A DNA stretch of 64,000 nucleotides from an uncultured Gammaproteobacteria bacterium (GCA_964411255.1 CAYPKD010000002.1:98141-162140); one strand, 5' to 3'. Shown: positions 11,621 through 61,532, counted from the first letter of the stretch. Made by a program: numbers and translations. Notes: generated by a model not told the origin, from the sequence alone.

Positions 11621-11667
11621 GGATTTGACACTTTTTTTATAGTTTGATATACTTTTTTTACAATCAA

Positions 11668-11752
11668 ATACCGCAGACAGTAAGGGCCGAAAGGCTTAAA
11701 AATTCAACCTTACCGAGGTACAAACATTTAGTATTTTGTATTTTTGCGGTAT
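11668..11752 (+). promoter_or_regulatory. structured leader upstream of rplJ (possible L10 autoregulatory leader)
   Basis: ATACCGCA (11668-75) pairs with TGCGGTAT (11745-52), enclosing GTAAGG/CCTTAC and GCCGAAAGGC hairpins; the L10-leader assignment is by position only. Confidence 0.3.
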
Positions 11753-11813
11753 TTTTCCCGCAATTTTTTATTGATATTTATTCGTAATAAATTTATAAAA
11801 TATTTGTAATTTT

Positions 11814-17547: not shown

Positions 17548-17747
17548 TGTAAAAACAGATCAACCCCTCGACTTCGCTCGGGGCAGGCAGATCAGCAACA
17601 GATATAAAACTTTATCAAAAAGGTGAGTTATTTGACTAAATTTAGGTAAATTTTATTAAAACAACTATAATATTGACAAAATAATAAAAATAGGCTAAAC
17701 TCTAATGTTACTGATATTTGACAAATTACGCATTCAGGAGGAAAAGA

Positions 17748-20456: not shown

Positions 20457-20491
20457 TTGATATTGTTTCATTGACAATCAAGGAGCAAATC

Positions 20492-22294
20492 ATGTTTGAA
20501 CTATATGACTATCAGAAACGGCAATTAAAGGCAATTAATAAAGCATTTGAAACTACAATGCGAGCATTAATGGTAATGGCCAGCGGTTTGGGAAAAACTG
20601 TTGTTGCCGCATTTTGGGCAAAAGATCAGGTCCAAAATGGAAAAATGCTTTTCCTCTGCCATGAGAACGAAATTCTTGCTCAGGCATTGAGTATTTTTAG
20701 GCAAGTGCTAGGTGAAACTGTTTCGCTTGGCGTATTTACTGGCCAGCAAAAAGACTATGAAGAAGTTGATGTACTTTTTGCTTCTTTCCAGACAATGCGT
20801 GAATGGAAACAAGCCTTTTTCCCAAATGAGTTTGCCACTATCATTGTAGATGAATCTCATCATGGCCAAGCGCCGACCTACAAAGAGGTAATAGAATATT
20901 TTACTCCTCAAAAGCTTTTTGGCATGACAGCCACACCAGATCGAATGGATGAAAAAGACATTCGTGAGATTTTTGGTGATGAGGTTGTTAATCTATCGCT
21001 TGAAGAAGGCATTGCCAAAGGCTGGCTAACGCCAGTTGAATATTATGTAATGAATGATGGGCTGAATACCAAGGTTCTGCGAGAAATCGTTGATAGAGTA
21101 TTAAAAAAAGGTGAGCGTATTTCAATTAAACAACTCAATGAAACCATTTTTATTAAAGCTCGGGATGAAGAGATCGCTCGAATCATTCAGGGGCGTGGCA
21201 GAAAGACAATTATTTTCTGTGAGCGCATTGAGCATGCAGAAGAATTTGTTCAGCATTTGCCAAAAGCAGAGTGTTTTCACTCTTGTAAAAGTGCACATCA
21301 CAATGAACTTGTTTTGAAGGCTTTCCGAGATGGAACACTGCAATATATTTTAGCAGTTGATAAATTCAATGAAGGAATTGACATTCCTGATGCTGAAATG
21401 GTTGTGTTCCTGCGCTGTACAGACTCAAGAACTGTCTTTTTGCAGCAGTTGGGCAGGGGATTGCGAAAGATTGAGGGTAAGGATAATGTTGTAGTCCTTG
21501 ATTTTGTTGCTAACTGTGAACGGCTAAAAATAGTTAGAGATATGGCCGGAAGAGTAAAATCAATGGCTAACGGCCAGGCTTTGTGTGAAGATGTGCTAAA
21601 GGTTTCAGGCAAAGCATTTGATTTTCTATTCACTGATAAACAGCAGGATATTTTTACAATTCTTGAAACAATCAAGCCTCGATATATCTCAGATATCCCG
21701 CATCTTTTGGCTGAATATTCAGATAAAAACGAATTGCCGCCAGAGCAAGTGAGTGCCGGCACATCCAAAAATCTGTGGTGGAAATGTCAAAAAGTGAAAT
21801 GTGGATATGAATGGCAGGTTAGTGGGAATTGTAGAATATCTAAAGTGACAGGATGCCCCGCCTGTGCTAATCGTATTGCCACTTTAAACAATAGTTTGGC
21901 GGTAACTCATCCAGAATTAGCAGAAGAATATTCTGATAAAAATCAGTTCACTGTTGATGAGGTAGTTGCAGGCACAAGAAAAAAGTTGTGGTGGAAATGT
22001 AAAACATGCAATCATGAATGGCAGGCAGCAGGAGATAGAAGGGTTCACGGAACAGGCTGCCCAGTTTGCGCAATAAAAAGAACAATAGAAAAACGCAGAA
22101 AGAAATTTTTTCAGACTTGGCAGGAATCTAGTCGATTGGCAATATCCTTAGGAGTAAAAAATTGGCATGAGTATAGAAATATGTATAAAAAGGATCCAAG
22201 ATTGCCTTCTGTTCCACAAACATTTTATTTAAATTTTCCTAAAAAGCCAAACGGCCGTCCTGATTGGGATTTGTTTTTTGGGAGGAAAAAATAA
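20492..22294 (+). CDS. SF2 DExH-box helicase (ResIII / type-III restriction res-subunit-like N-terminus plus Helicase_C) fused to two zinc-ribbon modules and one C-terminal copy of the repeat module
   Basis: motifs GLGKT (I), DESHH (II), TATP (III), QQLGRGLR (VI); two repeats of LAEYSDKN...WWKC-K-C-GYEWQ...GCP-C (recalled as DUF4379-like zinc ribbon); final 60 aa TWQESSRLAISLGVKNWHEY...LPSVP...FLNFP...WDLFFG; ATG 20492 (RBS AAGGAG) preferred over the TTG at 20471. Confidence 0.85.
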   Translation: MFELYDYQKRQLKAINKAFETTMRALMVMASGLGKTVVAAFWAKDQVQNGKMLFLCHENEILAQALSIFRQVLGETVSLGVFTGQQKDYEEVDVLFASFQTMREWKQAFFPNEFATIIVDESHHGQAPTYKEVIEYFTPQKLFGMTATPDRMDEKDIREIFGDEVVNLSLEEGIAKGWLTPVEYYVMNDGLNTKVLREIVDRVLKKGERISIKQLNETIFIKARDEEIARIIQGRGRKTIIFCERIEHAEEFVQHLPKAECFHSCKSAHHNELVLKAFRDGTLQYILAVDKFNEGIDIPDAEMVVFLRCTDSRTVFLQQLGRGLRKIEGKDNVVVLDFVANCERLKIVRDMAGRVKSMANGQALCEDVLKVSGKAFDFLFTDKQQDIFTILETIKPRYISDIPHLLAEYSDKNELPPEQVSAGTSKNLWWKCQKVKCGYEWQVSGNCRISKVTGCPACANRIATLNNSLAVTHPELAEEYSDKNQFTVDEVVAGTRKKLWWKCKTCNHEWQAAGDRRVHGTGCPVCAIKRTIEKRRKKFFQTWQESSRLAISLGVKNWHEYRNMYKKDPRLPSVPQTFYLNFPKKPNGRPDWDLFFGRKK

Positions 22295-22367: not shown

Positions 22368-24500
22368 TTATAAGTGTTTAAGATTAATTGAAATAATTTT
22401 TTGACCATCTATCAAATAAATCTTTCTATTTCCCTCATCCACTGCCATATCTGAAACAGACTGGGCATTTTCAATCTGATATTGGATTACCACCAGACCA
22501 TTTTTGCCATAAACAATAACTCTGTTTGTGTTTTTGTCTAAAACATAAATATAACTTGAATCAACATCAGTATATATCTTGCTTGCGCTTTCAATCTTTG
22601 GCTCAATGTTTTGAGCAGAAAAGCTCTGCTTATCTCCGCTAAGGAATTTTTGGATTGTACCATTTGAACTCAATACATAAATATCGCCATCAATGGCCAT
22701 TGAAGTGGCGCTGCTAAAATCTGCTGCGTCATTTACCCAGCTAGCTGGAGGACCATAAGAATTTGACCCAACATTTCTGAGTTTATAGATCTGATTATCA
22801 GCAGGTGATAAAAAGTAAAGATGAGTGTTGTATACGTAAAAATCAGTCCATGAGCCCTCTGAATCCAGACTTACTTTTTCAAATTGATCATTATCAGTAG
22901 AGTATTGATATAGACTATTATTTTCAAATAATATATATAAAGTTTGATCATCAAAAGCAAACTGGCTTAAAACATTTGCGTTTATATTAGTTTCCACTGT
23001 AGATAAAATTTGCGCTGAAGATAAATTAATGGAATTAAGATTGTTTTGATCAGATACGATTAGGATTTGATCGTTTAAAACCTGCAGCTTCATTGAATCC
23101 TGGTTTAGATTGGCTAAAGTAATAAGATCTTGCGCCTGAACTGATTCAAGCTTTAATAGTTTATTATTTAAAGCCTTGTATTGATTCTCAAGTTTTACAA
23201 TATTTTGATTTTCCTCTTCAGATTCTTTTGGTAGTTTTGAAATCAAATCTTTTACTTCAGCCATTAAATTTAAGCTTTTATCAGTATTTCTGAATAAGAA
23301 AGCAGCTTCAGCCTGATTTAATTTGGTTTCAATTGCTTTAATTGAGCTGTTATATGCTGCATCGTCTTTTTTTGTTTCCTGATTTTTATATATCCAGACT
23401 ATGCTTAAGGCAAAGACTATAACTAATGCAATTATTAAAATTATAATAATTTTTTTTGTTTTTGGAGCCATTGGCTTTTCTTTTTTTTCTGATTTTGATT
23501 CAGTAGTCACTTTTTTTCCTTTTGATATGCCAAGTTTATTGAGAATGCTTTTTATCAAACTTGGAGAGCTTCGTATTTCGTCAACAGCAATACCTTTTGG
23601 TTTTTTTTGTCTGCTAAATATAGATATGAACTTTTTTCCAATATTTTTAAATTTTTGTTTAATATTTATGCCAATTGCTGGGGTGAGAAATTTTTCAGTA
23701 TCCATTTGAGTATTGACCAGCGTATTGATTGATTGCTGGGATGCTTTTTCCTGTTCAATTAATTGAAGATCTTCTTGTTTTATAAAAATAGCAGAAAATG
23801 TTTTGGCATACCCTTGAGGTCTTTTTTGCAAAAGAATTTTAAAATCTTCGATAAGTTCTTTTACTGGTCTGTTTGAAGCTATTTGGTTTATTTTTTCAGC
23901 AGAAAAAAATCTGGCAAATCCTTCATTAGAGATGATTAATGCGTCAGGCAGAAAGATTTTACCAGAAATAATGCTGGCAAAAATTTTGACTTTATTTTCA
24001 GGAGAATTTTCAGATCCAGCTAAAATGTCAATTATTTTATAGTTTGATTTTTTAGTTTTATGGATTAAAAAACTTTGGATATTACCCCGATGGCTGAATA
24101 TTATATCAGATTCAATATTGCTTGGCTTTATCACAGCCACTAAAAAGTTAATATTTTCTAAAATTAGCTGAATTTGGCCATTTTGTATCAATTGGAGCAC
24201 TTTTTCATTGGTTTTTTGAAGCGCATGTTCAAAAACTGTCTCTAAATTCAATTTTTGCGGATCAGGAGAGGTAACGATTTGCCTGTAATAATGGTCTTTT
24301 AAGCTGGAAATTATGGTATTTGAGATTTTCTGTCCATGCTCAGTGGGGGTAGCATTAATTTCAATAATTCCTAAAACATGGCCGCCAAATTTTTCTTTGC
24401 CATCTGGGAAAATAATAAAATTTTCACAAAAATAATCATTTTGCACTTGATTTGAAGGAAGAAATATTTCTTCAATCCTTAGTGCTTTTTGTTTGTCCAT
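22368..24500 (-). CDS. hypothetical membrane protein: N-terminal cytoplasmic domain, one TM helix, coiled coil, C-terminal beta-propeller-like repeats
   Basis: 710-aa ORF; TM segment IIIILIIALVIVFALSIVWIY; Gln/Leu-rich heptads; C-terminal repeated IYVLD / IYLID-type strands. Confidence 0.65.
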   Translation of the reverse strand: MDKQKALRIEEIFLPSNQVQNDYFCENFIIFPDGKEKFGGHVLGIIEINATPTEHGQKISNTIISSLKDHYYRQIVTSPDPQKLNLETVFEHALQKTNEKVLQLIQNGQIQLILENINFLVAVIKPSNIESDIIFSHRGNIQSFLIHKTKKSNYKIIDILAGSENSPENKVKIFASIISGKIFLPDALIISNEGFARFFSAEKINQIASNRPVKELIEDFKILLQKRPQGYAKTFSAIFIKQEDLQLIEQEKASQQSINTLVNTQMDTEKFLTPAIGINIKQKFKNIGKKFISIFSRQKKPKGIAVDEIRSSPSLIKSILNKLGISKGKKVTTESKSEKKEKPMAPKTKKIIIILIIALVIVFALSIVWIYKNQETKKDDAAYNSSIKAIETKLNQAEAAFLFRNTDKSLNLMAEVKDLISKLPKESEEENQNIVKLENQYKALNNKLLKLESVQAQDLITLANLNQDSMKLQVLNDQILIVSDQNNLNSINLSSAQILSTVETNINANVLSQFAFDDQTLYILFENNSLYQYSTDNDQFEKVSLDSEGSWTDFYVYNTHLYFLSPADNQIYKLRNVGSNSYGPPASWVNDAADFSSATSMAIDGDIYVLSSNGTIQKFLSGDKQSFSAQNIEPKIESASKIYTDVDSSYIYVLDKNTNRVIVYGKNGLVVIQYQIENAQSVSDMAVDEGNRKIYLIDGQKIISINLKHL

Positions 24501-27316: not shown

Positions 27317-30300
27317 ATGAAACAAAAAACAAACATTTGTAAAAAAACTGCCTTAATTATGGCAGGTTTTATTTTTGCCATTTCAATTACAGCATTAATC
27401 GTTGCTGCGCCGGCAAACGCGCAGTCAGTTACCCCTGAGGGGGATAATTCTTATTTGGGCGGAATTGGAACTGATTTCTCACTAGATGATGTCTCTATAA
27501 ATTCCAGTATTCCAATTTATGGCTCAATGTCTGAGGCCAGGTATAATTTTGTACTTTTTAATGTGCAGAGAGCTCCTGGGGCTTCTGCTGATTCGACGTT
27601 TCTAACCATTACAGGATTAATTCCAGACACATCCTATAATGTCCATGAGGACGGGTTTGTACCCCTTGTTTACACTTCAGACTCTACTGGTGAGATTAAT
27701 TTTAACCAGGATATAGGTACTCCTCATACTTTGACGATTAAAACCGACAGCTCAATTTTTGAGATAACCGCAGATTCCACTTGCGGGGATGTTGAAGCTT
27801 TTGGTGGTGTATGTGATGATTCTGGACCAGAATTAAATGTAACCATGCCTGCATCATGTATGATTAATGACTCTGTTTGGATTCATGATTTTTCTGGCAA
27901 TATTTATTTTAACGATTGCACTATCACTGCAAAGCCAGGCTATGGTATAGCCTTGTATCTTACAAATGTCAGCGGAATTATGCGAGACGTAAAAGTAAAA
28001 GCAGCAAGGACGGGAATAGCCTTTGGGGCTGGTACGAAATATTTATATATAGAGAATGTTGAAGTGACACCTACTATAGGCGATGGATTGGAACGAATTG
28101 GTTTTAATTTTGTTGGCCAGGATGTTGAAGAGATTGCCGTATACGACTATGTGTGTAATTTCTTTGAATTACCTTCTGATGTTAACAAGGGAGATATTTG
28201 CGTTTTAGCTCAGGATGGACAATCAAAGATTGATTTTGCATTAGGCACTATTTCTTATTCTGATAGGGGATTTATTTTTGAGAATTCAACTTTTTCATCA
28301 TCTGAAATACAGATTGTCAATACTCAGATTTATCTTAATTATAGCGAGTCTATCGGTCTTAGTTTAAGAAGAGCAAACATCATAAAGTCTACTAATAATA
28401 ATTATCTTTCTTACCCAGGTAATGACATTCCATTTTATAAGGCGATTGAAATAAAAGATGTTCCTTTTGGTGTTTCAGTTAATGATTTTATAAGTATTTC
28501 TGACAGATTTGGCCTTTGTCAATATGGGGCAACTGTAGAAAATGGAAGTAATATTAATTTTATTTCGCCTCACGAGGATCAAGAGACTAGTGCTCAAATT
28601 GCTGGTATTGTTGCTATTGATTCTGAAAATGTGAATATTGTCGGTACTGCAGCTGAACCTTCACTTTTTTACCCAAAGATCTTTGCAAATGCATTTGAAT
28701 ATGAAAACACAACAGGTATAGTAGGTAATTACATGAACGCGACTAGTACGGGTAGGGATCAAACAATTTTTAGAACTGATGAAGGCAATATTATTCTTTC
28801 GACTGACATTGGCTATTATGATGCGGCAGTTGAAATATCAGAAGGCGTGCTGCCTCCTGAAATTTCGCATCTATCAGATGATAGCATTCGTATTAGGAAT
28901 ATAGGGGACGATATAGATATATTATTTTATGATACTTATGGCGTGCCAATTGCACAAGCGCGTCTACACCCCGGAACTGAATTTATGGTATTTCATAATG
29001 AAGACGGCGGTGTTACTGTAGTTAATACCAACCTAGGGTCAGAAGTTACGGTGTTTAGATTGTATGACGATCCTGGTTGGTTTGTTGGCGCTTCTCCAAT
29101 CGGTACTGTGATATCAATGCCTGGAGATGTAATGTCATTTAATTCAGGAAATTCAGTGTATGTAAAAAACGAAGCTGGAAATTGGGATTTGGAGTTATAT
29201 GATAGCAATAGCAATTGGGTAATGAATGTTCCAATGAGCCAGGGAGATCATGTAATGGTTGAGGGAAATGTTGATGGCAGCACATCATTAACCAATGTAA
29301 ATACTTCAGCCCAAGATGTTTATGCTATTGAATGGGTAGAATCAGCAGGTATGCTGACCTTAGATCAAAATGAAACATTATCGGCAATTTCTGGTGTTGA
29401 TGTAGTTAATGTAAATGTAGCTGATGGAGCGATTGATTTAGATATATTAGATGTTGGTAGCCAAATTGCTATTGCCAAAACAGTATTAGCTCAAGGTAGT
29501 CAGGCCAGTCTTGCTGTTAATACTGCCGGTGGCACTGAATTAGTTAATCTAGGCACTGGTGTTTTTGATATAATAATAGATGATCTTGCACAATTCAGTC
29601 TTGAATCAACTGAAGGCGCTGTTTTTTCAGGTACTGTAAAAAAAGATATTACACCGATTTATGGCAATTTTGACATTGAATTTTTAGACAGCCAGGATAC
29701 AGTTGCCAGAGTGATAATGAATGATCCGACTCAGACAGCCAGACTGCAAAGAGATCCAGAAGGCTATGCTAATGTTCAAAATATTTCTCAAACAGAGATA
29801 ACAGTTGAAGGATATGATACAGCCAGAATTAGTAGATCAAGGCTTGGCTATGGAGACACGATTGGATTTAAGAGAGGATCTTTGCAACTAAAAGATACAT
29901 TAGGTTCCTTTGATGTTGAATATATTGCTTTAAATGGCGGAATTGTTGGTGTTACAACATTGCAGAATTTTGAAAAAATGAATTTAACTCATGTTGGCCA
30001 GACTGATGTGCAGGTAGAAAATATTGGCACTGTATCATTTGATATATTGAATCTGTTTACTAATCAGACTGAAACCGTTATTTCAGGTCAAACAACTGTT
30101 GTTATTCCTGGCCCTACTGGCCAGATTGAAGCAAAGGTTAAGGGCGGACATCCAAAGAAAGCGCTGGAATATGCAACTGTGAAAACTTATAATAAAAATG
30201 ACAGCTGTGTTTCTGAATATTTTCCAAATGCAGGACAAGTAAATGAATTTTGCGAACCAGTAGCTATGTGCGTTACTGGAGCAGATGGTAAATGCTTAAT

Positions 30301-30427
30301 GACTGTGTTAGCAGAAGAACATTATTTTGTACTGTCAGAGCATGAAGATTATCTTGGTGATTATTCTAGTCATTCAGTGGGTAAAGTAACAGAAAACAAA
30401 ACAAAGAAGGCAACACTCGTATTTTGA
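27317..30427 (+). CDS. large secreted protein (1036 aa), possible beta-helix/adhesin-like surface protein
   Basis: N-terminal signal peptide (IFAISITALIVAAPANA); Thr/Ser/Asn/Gly-rich beta-strand-like composition; no catalytic motif recognised. Confidence 0.7.
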   Translation: MKQKTNICKKTALIMAGFIFAISITALIVAAPANAQSVTPEGDNSYLGGIGTDFSLDDVSINSSIPIYGSMSEARYNFVLFNVQRAPGASADSTFLTITGLIPDTSYNVHEDGFVPLVYTSDSTGEINFNQDIGTPHTLTIKTDSSIFEITADSTCGDVEAFGGVCDDSGPELNVTMPASCMINDSVWIHDFSGNIYFNDCTITAKPGYGIALYLTNVSGIMRDVKVKAARTGIAFGAGTKYLYIENVEVTPTIGDGLERIGFNFVGQDVEEIAVYDYVCNFFELPSDVNKGDICVLAQDGQSKIDFALGTISYSDRGFIFENSTFSSSEIQIVNTQIYLNYSESIGLSLRRANIIKSTNNNYLSYPGNDIPFYKAIEIKDVPFGVSVNDFISISDRFGLCQYGATVENGSNINFISPHEDQETSAQIAGIVAIDSENVNIVGTAAEPSLFYPKIFANAFEYENTTGIVGNYMNATSTGRDQTIFRTDEGNIILSTDIGYYDAAVEISEGVLPPEISHLSDDSIRIRNIGDDIDILFYDTYGVPIAQARLHPGTEFMVFHNEDGGVTVVNTNLGSEVTVFRLYDDPGWFVGASPIGTVISMPGDVMSFNSGNSVYVKNEAGNWDLELYDSNSNWVMNVPMSQGDHVMVEGNVDGSTSLTNVNTSAQDVYAIEWVESAGMLTLDQNETLSAISGVDVVNVNVADGAIDLDILDVGSQIAIAKTVLAQGSQASLAVNTAGGTELVNLGTGVFDIIIDDLAQFSLESTEGAVFSGTVKKDITPIYGNFDIEFLDSQDTVARVIMNDPTQTARLQRDPEGYANVQNISQTEITVEGYDTARISRSRLGYGDTIGFKRGSLQLKDTLGSFDVEYIALNGGIVGVTTLQNFEKMNLTHVGQTDVQVENIGTVSFDILNLFTNQTETVISGQTTVVIPGPTGQIEAKVKGGHPKKALEYATVKTYNKNDSCVSEYFPNAGQVNEFCEPVAMCVTGADGKCLMTVLAEEHYFVLSEHEDYLGDYSSHSVGKVTENKTKKATLVF

Positions 30428-45619: not shown

Positions 45620-47086
45620 ATGAAAATAGCGTTGATTGAAGCTGGGTCGCCTGGCTTTCATGTGTTTAAAAAATTTGTTTTGCCAAGGCTTGGATTGCCA
45701 ATACTTGGAGCAATACTTCGTGATTTAAAACATGATGTGAAAATATTTTGTGAAGACTTATCAGGAATTGACTGGGGTTATGTGAGACAAGCTGATCTTG
45801 TCGGTATTTCTACAATTACCTGTACAGCTGAAAGAGCTTTTGATATTGTGAGAAAGATTAAAAAGCTTTGGCCCAAAAAGACCGTTATTATGGGTGGGCC
45901 GCATGTAACATTTTTACCAAAAGAAGCTTTGGATAAAGGTGTCGATTTTGTTGTTCGCGGAGAGGGAGAGCGAACAATGGTTGAAATTATAGACTGGATG
46001 AATGATTCAGGAAGCTTGGATAAAATTTTAGGGCTGTCTTATGAAGTAGCAGGTAAGCCTATCCATAATCCGGATCGTCCTAAAGATAAGGCTGTATTTG
46101 ATAATATCCCATTTCCTGCATTGGAAATGATTGAAGGCTATGAGAGAATGAGATTTATTCCAATTCAGACTTCACGAGGATGCCAGCATAAATGTGAGTT
46201 TTGTTCAGTAACGCCCATGTTTGGCCGAAAATTACGTTGCGCCACCGTGGTTACAGTTGTGGAAGAGCTAGAACGATTGATAGAGTTGATGCCAGGCAGA
46301 AAAGTTTTTTTCTACGATGACAATCTAGTCAGTAAACCACGCTGGACAAAAGAACTTTTGAGCCTGATGATTGAAAGAAAAGTGGAAGTTGATTGGATGG
46401 CGCAGGTTACTGTCAAAGCGGTTAAGGATACTGAATTAATGGATTTGTTTAAACAAGCCGGGTGTAAGCAGGTTTATGTCGGCCTTGAATCTGTTAATCC
46501 TCAAACGTTAAAAGATTGGAAAAAAAGTCAAACAGTGGAAGAGATGAAAAGAGCAATTCGAATTTTCCATGAATATGGTATTACAGTTCATGGGATGTTT
46601 GTTCTTGGTGGAGATAATGATAATCAGCAGACAGTAAAAGATACGGTAAAATTTGCAATTAAAATGAAAGTTGACACAGTAATGTTTTCAATCTTATGCC
46701 CGCTTCCTGGATCAGCTGTTTACGACAAGCTTGTAAGCGAAGGCAGACTACTTTCCAGATCATGGCGATATTTTGATGCTCATCATGTTGTTTTTCTACC
46801 GGCAAAGATACCAGCCTGGAAGCTTCAAAAAGCAGTAATGCTTCAGGCCATGCCCCGGTTTTATTCTTTAGGCAGAGTGATGAAAAGAGCATTAAAAGCA
46901 ATAACAGCATTTATTTTTTCCCTGTCTTTTAGAAAACAAGCTGGACGGAATCTATTTCTTACAATATACGGGCATATTACAGTAAGGAAATTTAGGAAGC
47001 AAAAAGGAGAGAGAGCGTTTTTTAAGCGGTTAAAAGAATTGCCATCAAGGATACGTAGAGATAAGAGTAAAGAATCTGCAAGCTGA
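45620..47086 (+). CDS. B12-binding-domain radical SAM protein
   Basis: CQHKCEFCSV (CxxxCxxC) radical SAM cluster motif after an N-terminal B12-binding-like domain; 488 aa. Confidence 0.8.
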   Translation: MKIALIEAGSPGFHVFKKFVLPRLGLPILGAILRDLKHDVKIFCEDLSGIDWGYVRQADLVGISTITCTAERAFDIVRKIKKLWPKKTVIMGGPHVTFLPKEALDKGVDFVVRGEGERTMVEIIDWMNDSGSLDKILGLSYEVAGKPIHNPDRPKDKAVFDNIPFPALEMIEGYERMRFIPIQTSRGCQHKCEFCSVTPMFGRKLRCATVVTVVEELERLIELMPGRKVFFYDDNLVSKPRWTKELLSLMIERKVEVDWMAQVTVKAVKDTELMDLFKQAGCKQVYVGLESVNPQTLKDWKKSQTVEEMKRAIRIFHEYGITVHGMFVLGGDNDNQQTVKDTVKFAIKMKVDTVMFSILCPLPGSAVYDKLVSEGRLLSRSWRYFDAHHVVFLPAKIPAWKLQKAVMLQAMPRFYSLGRVMKRALKAITAFIFSLSFRKQAGRNLFLTIYGHITVRKFRKQKGERAFFKRLKELPSRIRRDKSKESAS

Positions 47087-47175: not shown

Positions 47176-47535
47176 ATGAGGATTTTAATAGCACTATGCA
47201 TCATTTTGACAAGTTTTAGTTCTTTAGCAAATTATCAGGTGTGTCTTGATAAAAAGCAGAAATTTTTTTCAAAAAAAATCGATGAAGCACAGTTGTTAAG
47301 TGATTTAAAATCTTGTTTTATAAATCCATATGTGTCAATGGGAAATCCAGTTACATATAAGACAGGTAAATGTATTTTTGATGATAAAGGCCAGAGATAC
47401 TTGTTAATATCTGCAATTGGAAATTATGAACATATCAGAAAGCAGTTTGAAAGAGAAGTGAATAATGATCTGTGGCTTTATTCTCTAAAAATAGAGAGGA
47501 GAAGAAGGCTAAGGGCAGTGCACTTGCCATTGTAA
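47176..47535 (+). CDS. small secreted hypothetical protein
   Basis: signal peptide MRILIALCIILTSFSSLANY; GGGGAGGG RBS. Confidence 0.5.
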   Translation: MRILIALCIILTSFSSLANYQVCLDKKQKFFSKKIDEAQLLSDLKSCFINPYVSMGNPVTYKTGKCIFDDKGQRYLLISAIGNYEHIRKQFEREVNNDLWLYSLKIERRRRLRAVHLPL

Positions 47536-47653
47536 TAAAGAGTAGGATAAGATCCTGCGCTTGCCCTGAATTGAACGAAGTTTTAGTTCAGGGTTTTTTG
47601 ATTGATTTTTTAAAATAAAATGCTAAAATAAAAAATAGGTAATGGGTAAAAAT

Positions 47654-47814
47654 ATGAGATATAATATTCCAATAGCATTTGCAATAATAGTAGCTATAAC
47701 GCTTGGTGTTTTAATCTTTGGAATTTATAGCACCTATACCATGTTTTCCGCTAATGCTGCTGATGAGGAATTAGATATTGATATTCGTTTGGAAAGATTG
47801 AATAATAAAGATTA
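47654..47814 (+). CDS. possible 53-aa single-TM peptide (MRYNIPIAFAIIVAITLGVLIFGIY...)
   Basis: short ORF below the track cutoff, read manually; weak RBS. Confidence 0.25.
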
Positions 47815-47925
47815 AAATTGAGATATAATCCGAATGCCCCGAATAATTTGACAAGTTTGAGAAAGACAAAGCAAGCTAGAGGGGAGTTAGGATTTATAAT
47901 TTCTTATTCGTGTTTAAAAAAAAGA

Positions 47926-47952
47926 CGCCACAGATATGACTGGGCGGTTTTT
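47926..47952. terminator. probable bidirectional terminator
   Basis: CGCCA...TGGCG hairpin flanked by A8 upstream and T6 downstream. Confidence 0.4.
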
Positions 47953-48155
47953 TATTGATTAACAATAGAATCTTCTGTTATTAGCTCGTCACTGCCTGGA
48001 CATTTTTTGCCATCATACACTGGATCAGCATGCGGAACGACAACATATATTTGTTTCCCCTCATCATCAAATTCATTGTCAATTAATATAGCAGTTACAA
48101 CACTGGTACAAATAGGGCACTCTCCAGATTCTTCTATGTAGCAGACAAAAGCCAT
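47952..48155 (-). CDS. small Cys-rich protein (CxxC...C-PGS), paralogue 4
   Basis: internal Met of the 47952..48182 ORF gives a 67-aa product MAFVCYIEESGECPIC...HADPVYDGKKCPGSDE aligning with the three upstream paralogues. Confidence 0.4.
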   Translation of the reverse strand: MAFVCYIEESGECPICTSVVTAILIDNEFDDEGKQIYVVVPHADPVYDGKKCPGSDELITEDSIVNQ

Positions 48156-48334
48156 CTGGGTGCCACTCCGCTGCCATCGCATGGTTTTTTGCTGTATGGA
48201 TCTTTATGCTTTGTTAGAACATATTCTTTTTGATCTGCAATCTGTCTTGCTTTTGGATCTGGATCAGTAACTCTTTGTATGGGAAAATGTCCATCGCAAA
48301 GATAGCAAACGCCTAACTGTTTTTTCATGCGCAC
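48134..48334 (-). CDS. small Cys-rich protein (CxxC...C-GSG), paralogue 3
   Basis: MRMKKQLGVCYLC...KHKDPYSKKPCDGSG. Confidence 0.5.
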   Translation of the reverse strand: MRMKKQLGVCYLCDGHFPIQRVTDPDPKARQIADQKEYVLTKHKDPYSKKPCDGSGVAPRWLLSAT

Positions 48335-48484
48335 CTCCTTGATTGCAATCTATATGTTTTTATATCAATTTTGATTAATTTTGTCAATAAGATATGTACG
48401 TTATGTTTGCGTTATTTGGACGTTGTTATAAGAAATTAAATAATTCGAAAACCACTGTAGCATTGCTCAGTGGCTTTGTTTGTT

Positions 48485-48682
48485 CTAGAGACCTGGCCTG
48501 ACAGGTTCGTAGTGTTCACGGGGGATATTGCCGCTGCCTTTGCAGCGGTAGCCGGTCTGGCTGAAATGGTTTTTCAGAACCAGATGCGGATCTGGGAGGG
48601 TTTTTTTTCCAGGCGGCTGAGGATCACAGATTTCCAGCTCTACTTCTTTGCCACAAAGGTGGCAGGTTCCCTTGTTTTTCAT
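48485..48682 (-). CDS. small Cys-rich protein (CxxC...C-GSG), paralogue 2
   Basis: MKNKGTCHLCGKE...RCKGSG; followed by a terminator hairpin CCACTG...CAGTGG. Confidence 0.5.
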   Translation of the reverse strand: MKNKGTCHLCGKEVELEICDPQPPGKKTLPDPHLVLKNHFSQTGYRCKGSGNIPREHYEPVRPGL

Positions 48683-48683
48683 T

Positions 48684-48896
48684 TTATTTTCCTTTCACCA
48701 GGATTTGTGGTTCTTGGCCAGATCCTTGGCATTGTACATCTGACCCATTGAATTTGTGAGGAGCCATTATATAGTCCTCACAAGGCTCATGTAGAATTTG
48801 ACAGAGAAAAGGATCTTCTTTTGTGTCAGATGGTTTACAGCTATGAATAACCGGATGAACTGACTGACAATAGCAGCAGACGCCCTTTTTATGCAT
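48684..48896 (-). CDS. small Cys-rich protein (CxxC...C-GSG), paralogue 1
   Basis: MHKKGVCCYCQS...QCQGSG; 1-nt gap to paralogue 2. Confidence 0.5.
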   Translation of the reverse strand: MHKKGVCCYCQSVHPVIHSCKPSDTKEDPFLCQILHEPCEDYIMAPHKFNGSDVQCQGSGQEPQILVKGK

Positions 48897-49018
48897 GTTT
48901 TTCTCCTATATAAGGTTCAAAGTATTATACCATACATTATTCTTTTTGTCAACATTTTCGTGTATTTTTAGGTAAAATTGTGATAAAATATGTATTAGAT
49001 TCATAAATATTAAATAAT

Positions 49019-56372: not shown

Positions 56373-59300
56373 TTATTCTTTTTCCCAAATAATGACCACA
56401 GCATGGTTGCCATCAGCATCCCAGTTTGCATAACCATTAAAGCTTGTTTCTGGTTCATATGTTAATTTTATCCTTGGGTTTAATGAAAAATGGTTTTGAT
56501 AATATTCAGCAACTTTATCTCTATTTGAGCTTGAGTTAGTGGATTTATCCAGCGGTACTGTGACAATATCTATTTTTCTTTTTTTCGCTGTTTCTATTGC
56601 ATAATCAAGTATTTCCTTAATCAAGGCATCCTGGCCAGCTTTGGTCAATAAATTTTCGCGTGGATTGTTTGCTCTGATATTTAGCACCTTTTTTCCATCT
56701 GGAGTGGTGGTTTCAATAAATAATACTGAACCCTCAATGTTTTGCTGTGGTTTATTGCGGTTGGTTACAAATACGATGGCAGTAATTCCTTCATATTCAC
56801 CATTGGCCAGTTCAAAATGTTGTGAGGTATAGCAGGCATCGCCAATGTCTCCGGCAAATATGCGGAGCAATCCTTTCTGAGGAACAAAATTGACTTCTGT
56901 TTTTACTATAGATTTTCTTTCGCCAATCTGAATGTTCTCTAATTTTTTTTGAGCGCTTAAAAGGATATGTTTTTCCGAGTCCTGGCTGGTTTGCCATAAA
57001 GATCCAAGCGCTTTAACCAAATTTTTTGAAAAAGGCTGATGATAAGTATGCTCTGGAATTTGATCTGAATGAAGATAATGTTCTCTTATATTAAAAACCA
57101 TTAAGTCACCAACTCGATCAATGTCTTGTTTTGTTAGCGTATCTTCAGCCTGACTGATTTTTTCTAGGATTTCCTTCCAGCCTTGTGCTGATATTTGATT
57201 GAGATGAAACGCTGATAAAGTATGCAGGACTGGCCAGGCTTCTTTTATTTGTGATAATTTATTCATTAATTCAATTAATTCATTCTCATCTGCTCCAGGG
57301 GAGAGAATAGAGTTTTCAAGTGTTTGTTTTGCTTCAGTCAGTCTTTGAATATTTTTTTCAATTCCTGGCCTGGCTTTTTCTGGCAAAGTTTCCAATCGGT
57401 CTTTGTTAGCCTTAATTTTTATATCAATTGAATCAATCAGCTTTTGTTTTTCTTCTTTCCAAAAACTGCCAATATCATCTATCTCAACACCTTGCTTAAT
57501 TGCATTTTTAAAATAATTAAAAGCTTCAATTAATTTTTCTCTATCTAGAATTTTTCTTTCCTGTTGCTTTAATTCTTGTTCACTAAAAGCTGGTCTTAAT
57601 ATATCAGCCTCTATTTTTACTGCTTTTTCCGTATATCCATTCGGCAGTTTAGTAGCTTGAGGATTTTTTTCTATTGTATTTTGCCAAGTGTAGAATAGAT
57701 CTTCATAATTATCAGACCGGCCCCAACGTGTGGTACCCAGCATGCCTTTGAAAATATCTATGCCTAAAGCTGAGTCAATTTTCTTTGGCATTTTATCTTT
57801 TAGAAGTTGGGTCATTAATTTTGTCCTAAACAATTTGATTTCATTTAAAATGGCAGCATTATTTGGCAGTTTTTCAATTTTTTTTGGACCAATAATTTCA
57901 ATTAAATAATTTTTTACATTTGGAGGTACATCTTCCAGTTTTTTTGTTTTTTTCAAAGCAACATAGGTAGACAGCAGTTCTGGAGTGTTAAATGGCCCAA
58001 AATCCTTAACAAAAGAAAGAAATAGCTGGCCGTCTTTTTTATTTTTCAAAGACAGATCTATATCTTCTCGTTTCTCAGCTTCATTGATAAGCGGAGTGAG
58101 CGCAACTACCCATGGGCAATATGCTTTTTTGTCTGCAAATGCCTGGACTTTTTTTAATTTTTGCAAGGAATCATACCATGGAATGTGTTTTTTATCTGAT
58201 TTGTCTATAAGAGCTAAATCTTTAAGCGAATCAAGGCCTTGATGATAATAATATTCAGGCGCAAACTGCTGGAATTCTTCTTCAGTATATAAACTACTAT
58301 TGGTTAATAAAAAGCCAAATTGGCCTTTTTCTAAAGCTAGTTTAGCAACTTCTACTTTTGACATGTTTAATTTATCTGGATTTTCAAAGAGTACACGTAA
58401 GTTCGTTTTTGAAATAAGTTGTTCAGCTAATAATTTTTTTCTTTTTGGCGTGATTTCAAAATGTTTAATAAAATCAGTGAACAATGCATATGAAGTTTGT
58501 ACTGCTGCATGATTAAATAATTCATCTTTTTGCTCATCAGTTAATGGTAGCTTTTCTTGGTCCATGGACCAGAGCATCCATCTGGGGTTGACTGGAATGA
58601 CCATATCAATGAAATCTTTTTCACTAAGTTCAAGATTATCTAAATGTTTGTATATTAATTCATAATTTTGAGAATATTTTAACAATGCCTGGGTAAGTGC
58701 TGTTTTATGCTCTTTGGTTAAAGGAAGTTTACCCATGACTTTTAGTAATTCATTTGGTGCTTTTTCTATACCCATTTCAATTAAATATTTTTTTTGGAGG
58801 TCAGAAAGTTCCAGATCATCAAGTCGTTTTAAAGCTTTTGCTGTTAATTTAGATGATATTTGAAAGATAAAGTTGTTATATTGACTTTTTGATAATTCAA
58901 TATCATTATTTAAATAATCTATAAAAACTGGTTCTGGAGATTGTTGAATTGTCAAATCAATTAGCTCTTGTTTATTTTCATCCGATAGGTTTTCTAAAAA
59001 AAGAGTATGAATATAAAGGCCTTGGATGACATTTGGTTTAGCAGCTGCTGCTTTAATCATTTTTTCCATATCATCATCTGTGAGATTAATTTTGTCTTGA
59101 GCTCTCGCTAGCCATACAGGATCTGATTCGATTACTAATTTTTTAAATTCGTCTTTTGGATAGCCTATTTTATCTAAATATTGAAGGATAAGGCCATATT
59201 TTTTTTTGTCCAATAATTTTTCTACTAAAAGCTCTTGTTGATCATCTGTTAAAGTAAAATTGTCTATAATGGTGACAAAACGATCAGGGCAATGTCTTAT

Positions 59301-61532
59301 TGATGCTTTTATGAATTTTGCTTTGAAATCATTAAAATCAGGATCATCTTTAATATGTTCATTAAAATTATTAATCATCCATTTGGTTGCCATGTAAGAA
59401 TGGGCTGCTTTCATTATAAATTGTCCTTTGCTGCGGTTTACTTTATCCAGATTTTCAAATAAAAGACCTGGATTTTTATCAATAAGTTCATTAACTAAAT
59501 AACTTTCTTGTTTATTCTCTAATTTTACTTTGTCAATATTCTTTATTAAATTTTCAGGATGAAAAACAGTTAATTCATGAATAAGCATGGGCATCTGCTC
59601 CTCAGTTATTCCAAATTGGGATAAGTTGTCAATTATTATTACAGGATTTTTAGCCAGCACACATAAGGTGAATTCTTTTTTTGTTATGCCGAATTTGGGA
59701 TAAAGATCAAACATTTCATCAATATTTTTTTCAATTAGATATTTCATGATCTGCTTTTTTTCCTGATCATTTAATTCATATTGGCCAATGTTTTCAAAAA
59801 GTTCAATATACTTTTCAATTAATTCCAAAGATACTTCATATGAATAATCTCCAAGCAGAATTTGGCTTGTTAATTTATGCTTTTCATCCTGAGTGAATTG
59901 GTGCTTGCCTTTTATTTTTTCTATTTCATCTTTCTTGTCGAGTTCATCTTCAAGTTCTTTTTCATCTAGTTTACCTTCAATAATAGGCATGTTTCTCAAT
60001 AACCAAATAGCATTTTCTTTTATTATGCTATTTATTATAGTTTCATCAGTTAATTTCATTTTTTTAGCATATTCAAATAATATGGCTGGATTGCGTCCGG
60101 CAGTTAGTTGTATTAATAAATTTAGTTGAGGCTGAGTGAATTCAAATTTGTCATAATTCTTTATTAAATATTCACTGGCATATTGTGTTTTTAAAGCAAT
60201 ATCAACTACTTTTGTTTTTTGCTCAGCAGTAAGTTTGAGTTCATTTATATTTTCAATCACCCATCTTGGTGATCGTTGGATTATCATATCAATTGCTTCA
60301 TCTTTTGTTATCCCTAATTTATCTAGATTTTCAAGAAGCTTATCTTGGCGATACATTGATAATCTGTTTGCTATTTTATCTAGATCTGGTTTCTCAAGTT
60401 TAAATTCATCAAGTTTTGTAACAATAACTTCAGGGAATCTGTTGATCATATAAGCTATTATTTCCCGCTTTTGATCATCAGTTAATTCAAATTTATTCAT
60501 ATTTTCAAACAGCCATTTGCTTCTGTCTAAAATTTTCTTATTTATTAGCCGCTCTTTTGTCATATCAAATTTATCCAGGTGTTTGAGTAGAAGATCAGGC
60601 TTTCTGTCATATAAATAAATTCGGACTTCATTAATTGCTGCCTGAGAAGGGGATATTTTGTTCCAGTTTTCTAAAATCATTTCAACATTGCCATGCTTTA
60701 AATCTTGAACAATTCTATCATGAATTCCCTGTGGTAAATTCAATTTATCAATATTGTCAAACAATGGCTGAGCTTTGTTTTCAAAACCCCAGCCGAGCAT
60801 ACCATCTACCAGCTCTTCAATTTGTTTTTGTGAAAATTTGAATTTTTCAATGTTATCAAAAATTGGCTTTGGATCACGGAGAAAGGTTTTGCTTACCAAT
60901 TCAAATAATTTTTCTTTTGGCAGATTAATTGAATCCATATTTTCGGCGATTTCAATCATATTTTTTTCAAAAAGCCTGGTAATAATCATTTCTGTTTGAT
61001 CTGGAGTGAACTGGGAAAAATCTATTTTGCTGATTATGCCTTTGAAATTTTCAGGCGAATATGACATTGATCTGATAAAATTGTGATATTGCGATTTTTT
61101 CGCTTCTTGTTCTGGCTTTTTTTCCATTTTAGCAACTTCAGGCAGGTATTTGTCTAAATTCTTTCTAAAAATTTTGATTGCTTTTTCTGGATTTGAATCA
61201 AATAATGAATAACAGCCATTGCTAATAAGATAAAATTTGAATATCGGGTGATTAACTTTTTTTTCAAATTCAGTAATAGCCAGTTCTGGATATTTTTCAA
61301 GTATATCATCAAGTGGCCTGAATATCTTTTCAAATTTATCCTCATCAGCTTCAGACATTTCTAATTGATCAGGATGAATATAGTAATTTTTACCACTAAA
61401 AAACTTATCAACCAATTGGTTAATGTTTTTTATTACCTTTGTCAATTCCTTAACATCAACTTCTTTTTCTTTTGGCTCTTTCAGTTCTTTTGGTTCAGAA
61501 GGAATGTCAATTTTTTGTACAGGCTCAGCCAT
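56373..61532 (-). CDS. giant (1719 aa) alpha-helical repeat protein, function unknown
   Basis: single uninterrupted ORF; dozens of ~35-40-aa Leu/Lys/Glu-rich helical units (L.N.DK..L...Q...L...); no TM or catalytic motif; distinct C-terminal ~200 aa. Confidence 0.75.
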   Translation of the reverse strand: MAEPVQKIDIPSEPKELKEPKEKEVDVKELTKVIKNINQLVDKFFSGKNYYIHPDQLEMSEADEDKFEKIFRPLDDILEKYPELAITEFEKKVNHPIFKFYLISNGCYSLFDSNPEKAIKIFRKNLDKYLPEVAKMEKKPEQEAKKSQYHNFIRSMSYSPENFKGIISKIDFSQFTPDQTEMIITRLFEKNMIEIAENMDSINLPKEKLFELVSKTFLRDPKPIFDNIEKFKFSQKQIEELVDGMLGWGFENKAQPLFDNIDKLNLPQGIHDRIVQDLKHGNVEMILENWNKISPSQAAINEVRIYLYDRKPDLLLKHLDKFDMTKERLINKKILDRSKWLFENMNKFELTDDQKREIIAYMINRFPEVIVTKLDEFKLEKPDLDKIANRLSMYRQDKLLENLDKLGITKDEAIDMIIQRSPRWVIENINELKLTAEQKTKVVDIALKTQYASEYLIKNYDKFEFTQPQLNLLIQLTAGRNPAILFEYAKKMKLTDETIINSIIKENAIWLLRNMPIIEGKLDEKELEDELDKKDEIEKIKGKHQFTQDEKHKLTSQILLGDYSYEVSLELIEKYIELFENIGQYELNDQEKKQIMKYLIEKNIDEMFDLYPKFGITKKEFTLCVLAKNPVIIIDNLSQFGITEEQMPMLIHELTVFHPENLIKNIDKVKLENKQESYLVNELIDKNPGLLFENLDKVNRSKGQFIMKAAHSYMATKWMINNFNEHIKDDPDFNDFKAKFIKASIRHCPDRFVTIIDNFTLTDDQQELLVEKLLDKKKYGLILQYLDKIGYPKDEFKKLVIESDPVWLARAQDKINLTDDDMEKMIKAAAAKPNVIQGLYIHTLFLENLSDENKQELIDLTIQQSPEPVFIDYLNNDIELSKSQYNNFIFQISSKLTAKALKRLDDLELSDLQKKYLIEMGIEKAPNELLKVMGKLPLTKEHKTALTQALLKYSQNYELIYKHLDNLELSEKDFIDMVIPVNPRWMLWSMDQEKLPLTDEQKDELFNHAAVQTSYALFTDFIKHFEITPKRKKLLAEQLISKTNLRVLFENPDKLNMSKVEVAKLALEKGQFGFLLTNSSLYTEEEFQQFAPEYYYHQGLDSLKDLALIDKSDKKHIPWYDSLQKLKKVQAFADKKAYCPWVVALTPLINEAEKREDIDLSLKNKKDGQLFLSFVKDFGPFNTPELLSTYVALKKTKKLEDVPPNVKNYLIEIIGPKKIEKLPNNAAILNEIKLFRTKLMTQLLKDKMPKKIDSALGIDIFKGMLGTTRWGRSDNYEDLFYTWQNTIEKNPQATKLPNGYTEKAVKIEADILRPAFSEQELKQQERKILDREKLIEAFNYFKNAIKQGVEIDDIGSFWKEEKQKLIDSIDIKIKANKDRLETLPEKARPGIEKNIQRLTEAKQTLENSILSPGADENELIELMNKLSQIKEAWPVLHTLSAFHLNQISAQGWKEILEKISQAEDTLTKQDIDRVGDLMVFNIREHYLHSDQIPEHTYHQPFSKNLVKALGSLWQTSQDSEKHILLSAQKKLENIQIGERKSIVKTEVNFVPQKGLLRIFAGDIGDACYTSQHFELANGEYEGITAIVFVTNRNKPQQNIEGSVLFIETTTPDGKKVLNIRANNPRENLLTKAGQDALIKEILDYAIETAKKRKIDIVTVPLDKSTNSSSNRDKVAEYYQNHFSLNPRIKLTYEPETSFNGYANWDADGNHAVVIIWEKE

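Follow-up and report, generated by a model that had tools for sequence, protein, structure and literature searches.

Four tandem genes encoding members of a previously undescribed family of small, mostly acidic proteins with a predicted Cys3His metal site

There are four small genes, here called A to D, arranged in tandem on the minus strand of a 64,000-nucleotide stretch of DNA (the window) from an uncultured Gammaproteobacteria bacterium (GCA_964411255.1 CAYPKD010000002.1:98141-162140). Gene A (48684-48896) encodes 70 amino acids and is preceded by GGAG located 6 nucleotides upstream of its start codon. Gene B (48485-48682) encodes 65 amino acids and starts one nucleotide past the stop codon of A, with the junction reading TAAAATG. 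Gene C (48134-48328) encodes 64 amino acids from an ATG that lies 5 nucleotides past AGGAGG. Gene D (47952-48155) encodes 67 amino acids beginning with MAFVCY, and the longest open reading frame (ORF) at this site starts at ATG 48182. The ATG at 48155 is preferred for D because GGAG is located 10 nucleotides upstream and because the JGI, ENA and Logan gene calls use the same start. Genes C and D overlap out of frame by 22 nucleotides with the preferred start of D, or by 49 nucleotides with the upstream one. A first-pass annotation of this DNA had described four minus-strand paralogous ORFs of about 65 amino acids, two of them separated by 1 nucleotide and the last two overlapping out of frame at 48134-48182. 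All four ORFs are found as described, as is the gap (TAA-A-ATG, between A and B); the overlap exists as well, but it extends over 49 nucleotides only if the long form of D is assumed.

The four proteins are built to a common plan, wherein G-x-C-x-x-C is followed some 30-37 residues on by a His and about 8 residues further by C-x-G-S. The N-terminal motif reads MHKKGVCCYC in A, MKNKGTCHLC in B, MKKQLGVCYLC in C and ..EESGECPIC in D, and thus the CxxC knuckle noticed in the first pass is present in every copy. Two further motifs had been assigned to the group as a whole and are narrower in their occurrence. The C-x-G-S-G motif near the C-terminus is found in A, B and C, whereas D reads C-P-G-S-D, and an H-x-DP motif is found in C and D but not in A or B, such that the conserved feature is the His alone. 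Pairwise identities among A to D are 26-39%, and therefore the duplications that gave rise to them are old. The most divergent copy is D, which nevertheless has the C, C, H, C and G that are invariant in the wider family described below.

The positions of predicted promoters and hairpins indicate that the genes form two bicistronic units, P1-A-B-T1 and P2-C-D-T2. Promoter P1 (48924..48952, minus strand) consists of TTGACA, a 17-nucleotide spacer and TG-n-TATAAT, and matches the consensus at 12 of 12 positions with an extended -10 TG. Both hexamers are kept in two related loci, L001 and L023, even though gene A is missing from the latter. Promoter P2 (48359..48387, minus strand) has TTGACA, a 17-nucleotide spacer and TATAAA, and is also kept in L001 and L023; it was read by eye from the sequence and is unlisted in the promoter scan because its final -10 base is A. 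Judged by the match to the sigma-70 consensus, A to D are predicted to be strongly promoted genes. A terminator-like hairpin past B (T1, 48448..48477, minus strand; dG -15.5 kcal/mol, z = -5.4) is followed by UUUUC and is kept in L001 and L023, with compensatory changes in its stem. The corresponding hairpin past D (T2, 47916..47946, minus strand; dG -10.9 kcal/mol, z = -4.4) is followed by eight U residues and is kept in L001 and in a further relative, L005. Between T1 and P2 the window carries a 56-nucleotide AT-rich insertion (48391-48446) relative to L001, L005 and L023.

Orthologues that share 73-78% of their amino acids with A, B and C are encoded in a syntenic relative (L001-L006), which includes tgt, ogg, sodA, the cluster and a radical S-adenosylmethionine (radical-SAM) gene. 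Ratios of nonsynonymous to synonymous substitution rates (dN/dS, Nei-Gojobori) against L001 are 0.18 for A, 0.14 for B and 0.45 for C, and those of neighbouring genes are 0.05-0.14. In comparisons with the third lineage, L023, B has a ratio of 0.17-0.32, and the first 40 codons of C have one of about 0.3. A to D are real coding genes. Nevertheless, they are unevenly represented in public annotation. Gene C is known in public gene calls as P0001, and the NCBI annotation appears to hold only A plus the long form of D. Among about 15 billion collected protein predictions, none is the exact 65-amino-acid product of B, which means that this gene has so far escaped gene calling altogether; the gene callers applied to this genome passed over it.

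An exhaustive HMMER profile search over 1.84 billion representatives (clusters at 50% identity) recovered 59 proteins at a cut-off of E <= 1e-3. Most are 60-75 amino acids long, and nearly all are matched from end to end. When residue conservation was counted on an alignment of 58 members, with numbering according to A, C7, C10, H47, C56 and G58 proved to be invariant in 58 of 58 (C-x2-C … H-x6-10-C-x-G), and G5 and P63 are conserved in at least 90%. About 12 more copies from related loci have the same conserved residues. Conservation of the Cys positions in homologues had been named in the first pass as one of the points on which the grouping would stand or fall, and C7, C10 and C56 show no exception among the 58 members. 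The subtype that occurs most often has the pattern GVCCxCQSVHPV ... YVMxxH ... CxGSGTxPQALV, and A falls into it as an A-type member with GVCCxCQSVHPV...YIMAPH...CQGSGQEPQILV.

The relatedness of the four window proteins is also supported by a test profile built only from distant homologues, from which the window proteins and their orthologues had been left out. Searched against all six-frame ORFs of the window, this profile picks exactly the four genes, with E-values of 2e-22 for A, 2e-14 for C, 5e-7 for B and 3.5e-4 for D, and the next ORF is at E = 5.8. Against the four proteins alone the values are 5e-25 (A), 2e-17 (C), 1.7e-9 (B) and 1.6e-7 (D). There is no fifth copy among the six-frame ORFs of the 64-kb window by profile search. 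By word-indexed search nothing came up beyond the window proteins and their close orthologues, and the genome scan for family loci used the A-type sub-alignment as the query. The members are acidic, with a median isoelectric point (pI) of 4.85 and a median net charge of -5. The insert between C-x-x-C and the His spans 25-48 residues and likewise has a median net charge of -5, and the His-to-Cys spacing is 6-10 residues, 8 being the commonest. A to D are members of one previously undescribed family of mostly acidic small proteins of about 60-75 amino acids.

The family had not been recognised in the first pass, and no curated library holds a model for it. Comparisons with Pfam, NCBIfam, PHROGs and PADLOC gave nothing significant for the four proteins or the 58 members, and the one member of 58 that matched in PHROGs did so to an unnamed family. 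A search of the PDB with the family profile also gave nothing significant, returning only TutF/BSS-gamma (E = 0.55) and 6zxw_H, the latter through the knuckle only. Nothing on the family was found in the literature on small Cys-rich or zinc-finger proteins in Patescibacteria.

An AlphaFold2 model of A, made with the 58-sequence alignment, has a predicted local distance difference test score (pLDDT) of 83.6 and a predicted template modelling score (pTM) of 0.67. The core (residues 1-20 and 41-70) reaches a pLDDT of 88-96, and the acidic insert (residues 21-40) about 60. Short strands are predicted at residues 4-6, 13-18, 42-44 and 65-67. The knuckle is located between the first two strands, His47 comes right after the third, and Cys56-x-Gly58 forms part of the loop before the fourth. 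This layout is consistent with a small sheet, ribbon-like in form, that a single metal staples together. Because C7, C10, C56 and the His are invariant in the 58 members, a metal-binding, knuckle-type arrangement is the best reading of the conserved residues. The pattern suggests that C7, C10, H47 and C56 form a tetrahedral Cys3His site, and, in so small a protein, the occupant of this predicted site is most probably a structural Zn(II). A metal site resembling that of rubredoxin or a zinc ribbon had been proposed in the first pass, and the knuckle-type arrangement agrees with that proposal; its second half does not, since the C-terminal half-site is H-x(6-10)-C-x-G and not C-x-x-C.

Small proteins of comparable design have been described in haloarchaea, where HVO_0758 of Haloferax volcanii (PMC10716476) and Brz of Halobacterium (PMC2253796) are examples of zinc-finger micro-proteins that carry the C(P)XCG motif twice. 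These proteins resemble the present family in that they stand alone, are shorter than about 70 amino acids and have as their sole discernible feature one presumed tetrahedral metal site assembled from two distant segments. They also occur as many paralogues per genome, are often unannotated and act by interaction rather than catalysis. The C(P)XCG micro-proteins, however, have two knuckles (Cys4), whereas the family described here combines C-x2-C with H-x(6-10)-C-x-G (Cys3His), is set apart by its long acidic insert and by the conserved tail GSGTxPQxLV, and has no detected sequence similarity to them. A zinc ribbon or C(P)XCG assignment was rejected on the grounds that there is only one knuckle and that the sole zinc-ribbon match in Pfam is Zn_ribbon_RPB9 for one of the 58 members (E = 0.24). 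A zinc ribbon would agree with the predicted beta topology, but the model of A has no Foldseek match in the PDB.

Rubredoxin (PF00301) is likewise small and acidic, with an N-terminal knuckle of the C-x-x-C-G type, a loop that is both acidic and aromatic, and another ligand segment near the C-terminus. In rubredoxin this segment is a second C-P-x-C-G knuckle and iron is held by four Cys residues, whereas the family here has one His and one Cys that are 6-10 residues apart. Rubredoxin was rejected because this second knuckle is missing and because none of the 58 members matches Pfam Rubredoxin at E <= 1. The gamma subunit of benzylsuccinate synthase, BssC/TutF (PF08201), is a [4Fe-4S] accessory subunit of about 60 amino acids and thus of the same size. 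Its N-terminal C-x-x-C is followed by F/H-P-V, its middle part is acidic, and it shares an aromatic strand as well as a Cys at the C-terminal end. A purpose-built BSS-gamma profile shows that the invariant residues of TutF are C6, C9, C29 and C53, with no His. This candidate was rejected because hhalign gives a probability of 5.3% in the profile-profile comparison, over the 18 columns of the knuckle only, and 2.4% against the single sequence, and because the third ligand position differs. No gene for a glycyl-radical enzyme was seen beside family members, save for NrdD at a distance of 1.5 kb in one lineage.

Two other families were considered. The carrier proteins LysW/ArgW (TIGR01206, NF041070) are also small and acidic, have an N-terminal zinc-binding knuckle and serve as a protein-bound handle for partner enzymes. 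They were rejected because there is a weak match for only one of 58 members (E ~0.03), because the C-terminal EDWGE is replaced by a GSGxxPQxLV tail, and because there are no neighbours of the lysX/argX type. Iron-sulfur proteins of the CDGSH (mitoNEET) type have the motif C-x-C-x2-(S/T)-x3-P-x-C-D-G-(S/A/T)-H. The CDGSG of protein C has Gly in place of the final His and is not accompanied by a C-x-C segment or a Pfam match, and this assignment was rejected too. Thus, small micro-proteins with a single metal site are already known, and what appears to be new here is the ligand pattern, the distribution, and the lack of any detectable relative in curated libraries or the PDB.

With moderate confidence we favour the reading that A to D represent a new family of micro-proteins with a Cys3His site, probably for zinc, and that they serve as modules for binding other proteins, perhaps as hetero-pairs. 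The four expressed paralogues would be cytoplasmic, each with a small beta-sheet core on which the N-terminal G-x-C-x-x-C knuckle and the C-terminal H-x(6-10)-C-x-G segment converge to create one Cys3His site, and the metal would staple this core. Between the half-sites would lie the variable, acidic and poorly ordered insert of 25-48 residues, and past the last Cys the conserved tail, which in the main subtype is G-S-G-T-x-P-Q-x-L-V. Perhaps insert and tail together serve as the protein-binding surface. The paralogues might then be partly redundant modules, plausibly forming hetero-pairs of A with B and of C with D, and the tight spacing within each pair (the 1-nucleotide gap of A-B and the 22-nucleotide overlap of C-D) would permit translational coupling. 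We infer the structural role of the metal, the function as an interaction module and the pairing of A to D from these features together.

Hetero-pairing is proposed because A-B adjacency is recurrent, because fusions exist and because close spacing permits coupled translation. The distant locus L017 contains an A-type gene (~42% identical to A) with a clearly B-type gene behind and overlapping it, which indicates that the A-then-B pair predates the lineage of the window. Natural two-domain fusions of the family occur in P0007 and P0008 and in L026, L027 and the L013 locus of a Paceibacterota metagenome-assembled genome, and in L021/L025 a 62-amino-acid copy is located directly upstream of the two-domain fusion P0007. 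Gene losses point to partial redundancy of the paralogues. L001 and L005 are without D owing to an exact in-frame deletion of 168 nucleotides that leaves a MAFVCHIIINQ* remnant (L001:8150-8200), and L023 is without A owing to an exact in-frame deletion of 186 nucleotides that leaves MQFLVKGE* (L023:479-508). These are independent events, both internal, in which the first and last few codons remain as a mini-ORF. The remnant of A in L023 retains the TAAAATG junction and the Shine-Dalgarno-like AGGAG for B, and P1 is retained as well.

Several observations weigh against one part or another of this reading. Protein C and its orthologue are basic (pI ~9), unlike most members. A second Cys at position 8 (CC-x-C) is present in 34 of the 58 members and is a possible fifth ligand, and iron or an iron-sulfur cluster could fill the predicted Cys3His site instead of zinc. 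An AlphaFold2 model of the fusion P0007 (pTM 0.52) does not show how the domains pack and thus lends hetero-pairing no structural support, with domain 1 at a pLDDT of about 60 from a shallow alignment and domain 2 above 90. Many genomes have a single copy (L014, L018, L020, L028 and L033), and pairing is thus not obligatory. Moreover, a comparison of the ORFs of 12 loci reveals no gene context that points to an interaction partner.

The hosts of the family are Paceibacterota-type bacteria, and members also occur on phage-like contigs. An all-against-all BLAST of the ORFs of the 12 loci found no neighbour family in common beyond the family itself and the trivial synteny of close relatives. Ribosomal proteins S13, S11 and S4 are encoded nearby in L013/L027, smpB and arginyl-tRNA synthetase in L014, metK in L018, L25 and leucyl-tRNA synthetase in L020, NDK and an Fe-hydrogenase in L021, and MsrB and a NUDIX protein in L012. 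Of the phage-like contigs, L010 is 143 kb long and has a row of small ORFs, all on the same strand and none with a Pfam match, an HNH endonuclease and a 5'-deoxyribonucleotidase, and L015 has QueC-like and GyrB-like genes.

In loci of the Paceibacterota type (L013:5626-6171, L027:5608-6168 and L026:201-755), about 35 residues that are homologous to the EF-Tu N-terminus and include the P-loop stand in frame ahead of the two-domain fusion. This extension, MTREFQRNKPHLNIATIGHKDHGKPS, matches PDB EF-Tu chains with E = 2.5e-6 and is followed by an internal Met (MAKEAVATK). Its conservation between L013 and L027 is about equal to that of the domains, and the fusion gene is located directly after rpsM-rpsK-rpsD. 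These residues could form a genuine N-terminal part of the protein, or they could stem from a captured tuf 5' end that serves as its leader.

A bolder version of our reading, which we regard as doubtful, is that this new metal-binding fold family with a Cys3His pattern (C-x2-C + H-x8-C-x-G) is characteristic of small-genome bacteria of the Paceibacterota/candidate phyla radiation type and of some phage-like elements, and that its members are acidic adaptors which form hetero-dimers and work on some core machine of the cell. There are hints that this machine might be translation, in that members are found beside ribosomal-protein, aminoacyl-tRNA synthetase and smpB genes and that one lineage has the EF-Tu-fragment fusion.

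The neighbours of the cluster in the window invite other explanations. Gene sodA (Sod_Fe_N/C) is divergent from A at a distance of 122 bp, and ogg, which encodes an Ogg-HhH glycosylase, and tgt belong to the same group. Within the sodA-A intergenic region, a 39-nucleotide block (48960-48998) shows 100% identity when the window is compared with L001/L005, exceeding the conservation of the flanking genes, and is missing from L023, in which the neighbour is not sodA; it is probably the sodA promoter, operator or 5' untranslated region. In L023 the place of sodA, directly upstream of P1, is occupied by an N-terminal fragment of an insertion sequence (IS)-type transposase with a helix-turn-helix region (L023:76-430, minus strand; MSKIMPKSTKEEKYRWIKP...), identified by translation only.

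Cys-rich zinc sites are capable of redox switching. One possibility is that A to D are redox-active rubredoxin-like iron proteins or zinc-thiolate switches that take part in an oxidative-stress response with the adjacent Fe/Mn superoxide dismutase (SOD) and 8-oxoguanine glycosylase, an idea that goes back to the first-pass annotation, in which a metal-binding, redox or oxidative-stress role had been suggested from adjacency to sodA and ogg. The divergent position of A next to sodA with ogg adjoining, the superficially rubredoxin-like order of knuckle, acidic loop and second Cys, a weak match of B to the desulfoferrodoxin N-terminal domain through the knuckle only (E = 0.12), and the location of the distant member L012 at 2 kb from a SelR/MsrB gene would all be consistent with such a role. 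However, SOD adjoins the cluster only in the close syntenic lineage (L001), and in L023 the transposase fragment lies there. In the 11 more distant loci, BLAST and Pfam tables reveal no gene within ~6 kb that is homologous to any of sodA, ogg, tgt and the radical-SAM gene. In addition, no member reaches Pfam Rubredoxin at E <= 1, the second site is H...C-x-G rather than C-P-x-C-G, and A is transcribed from its own promoter and forms no operon with sodA. We consider a role in oxidative stress unlikely, and apart from local adjacency the suggestion is unsupported.

Base composition also shifts at the cluster, where the G+C content is 0.37-0.45 against ~0.31 in the flanks and the AT skew becomes sharply negative (47800-48800). 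This shift fits minus-strand coding and a composition rich in Cys, Gly and Pro, although the DNA may also be of foreign origin. Perhaps the proteins are accessory mobile or viral cargo, acting in host takeover, in anti-defence or as DNA mimics, which would account for acidity, tandem copies, rapid gain and loss and the lack of a fixed context. The higher G+C content and the acidic proteins agree with this idea, as do the two members on phage-like contigs (L010 and L015), the variation of copy number among three close lineages and the IS-like gene adjoining the L023 locus. Against it, a tblastn search with A and the phage-like member P0010 found no match in 50,697 deposited phage genomes, a pattern scan of IMG/VR gave no confirmed relative, PADLOC holds none, and PHROGs matched 1 of 58 members. 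Most loci lie in housekeeping neighbourhoods of small genomes (ribosomal proteins, aminoacyl-tRNA synthetases, metK, smpB), and the paralogues are old and under purifying selection. An origin as mobile or viral cargo is thus improbable in our view.

It is far less credible that all four ORFs, or B and D at the minimum, are spurious or in decay and owe their likeness to non-coding repeats. Such a view could draw on the absence of B from every public gene call, on the out-of-frame overlap of C and D, and on two features of D, which of the four matches the family least well and has been deleted in a relative. An antisense ORF of 93 codons (48470-48751, plus strand) that covers B and the 3' end of A provides a comparison. 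It is open in L001 as well and is part of a 214-codon ORF in L023, but its dN/dS of 0.90 is close to neutral, which indicates a shadow ORF and not a gene, whereas the dN/dS of B over three lineages is 0.14-0.32. Furthermore, a B-type orthologue follows the A-type gene in the distant lineage L017, and the five invariant residues are kept in all four proteins. D alone may be a degenerating copy, given that it keeps the invariant residues yet is the most divergent and is deleted in a relative.

A B12-binding radical-SAM gene (45620-47086, plus strand) is convergent to the cluster at a distance of ~0.9 kb, and two small ORFs (47176-47535 and 47642-47815, plus strand) lie in between. The notion that A to D are precursors of ribosomally synthesised and post-translationally modified peptides processed by this enzyme, prompted by several small Cys-rich paralogues at this distance in an arrangement kept in L001, can be set aside as extremely unlikely, because the radical-SAM gene is on the opposite strand with two genes and terminators intervening, no homologue of it is near any of the 11 other loci, conservation extends through the entire protein, around a core that is confidently predicted to fold, and does not split into conserved leader and variable core, and no transporter or peptidase gene is nearby.

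Elsewhere in the window, ORFs of 1475 and 714 amino acids (13095-17522 and 17718-19862) are full of repeats that match PF14882, 'integrase repeat unit' (E = 1e-104 and 5e-29), and a ResIII/DEAD-type helicase with C-terminal DUF4379 treble-clef zinc-finger repeats is located at 20471-22294. Large ORFs without any Pfam match are found at 22368-24500 (minus strand), 27317-30427 (plus strand) and 56373-61532 (minus strand, 1719 amino acids). The only Rfam match in the 64-kb window is a ribosomal protein L10 leader at 11653-11778 (RF00557, 74 bits), and a search for tRNA genes gave none.

Small proteins are systematically missed in annotation, and B is an example. The family is rare, with 59 clusters at 50% identity in 1.84 billion representatives, yet it is clearly conserved, and it deserves its own entry in domain databases. 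Removing the unsupported oxidative-stress label at this stage keeps it from spreading by guilt-by-association. Members are found in uncultivated small-genome bacteria, in which many genes have no known function, and the signature G-x-C-x2-C ... H-x6-10-C-x-G, the confident model and the patterns of pairing and fusion make this family readily testable by biochemical means.

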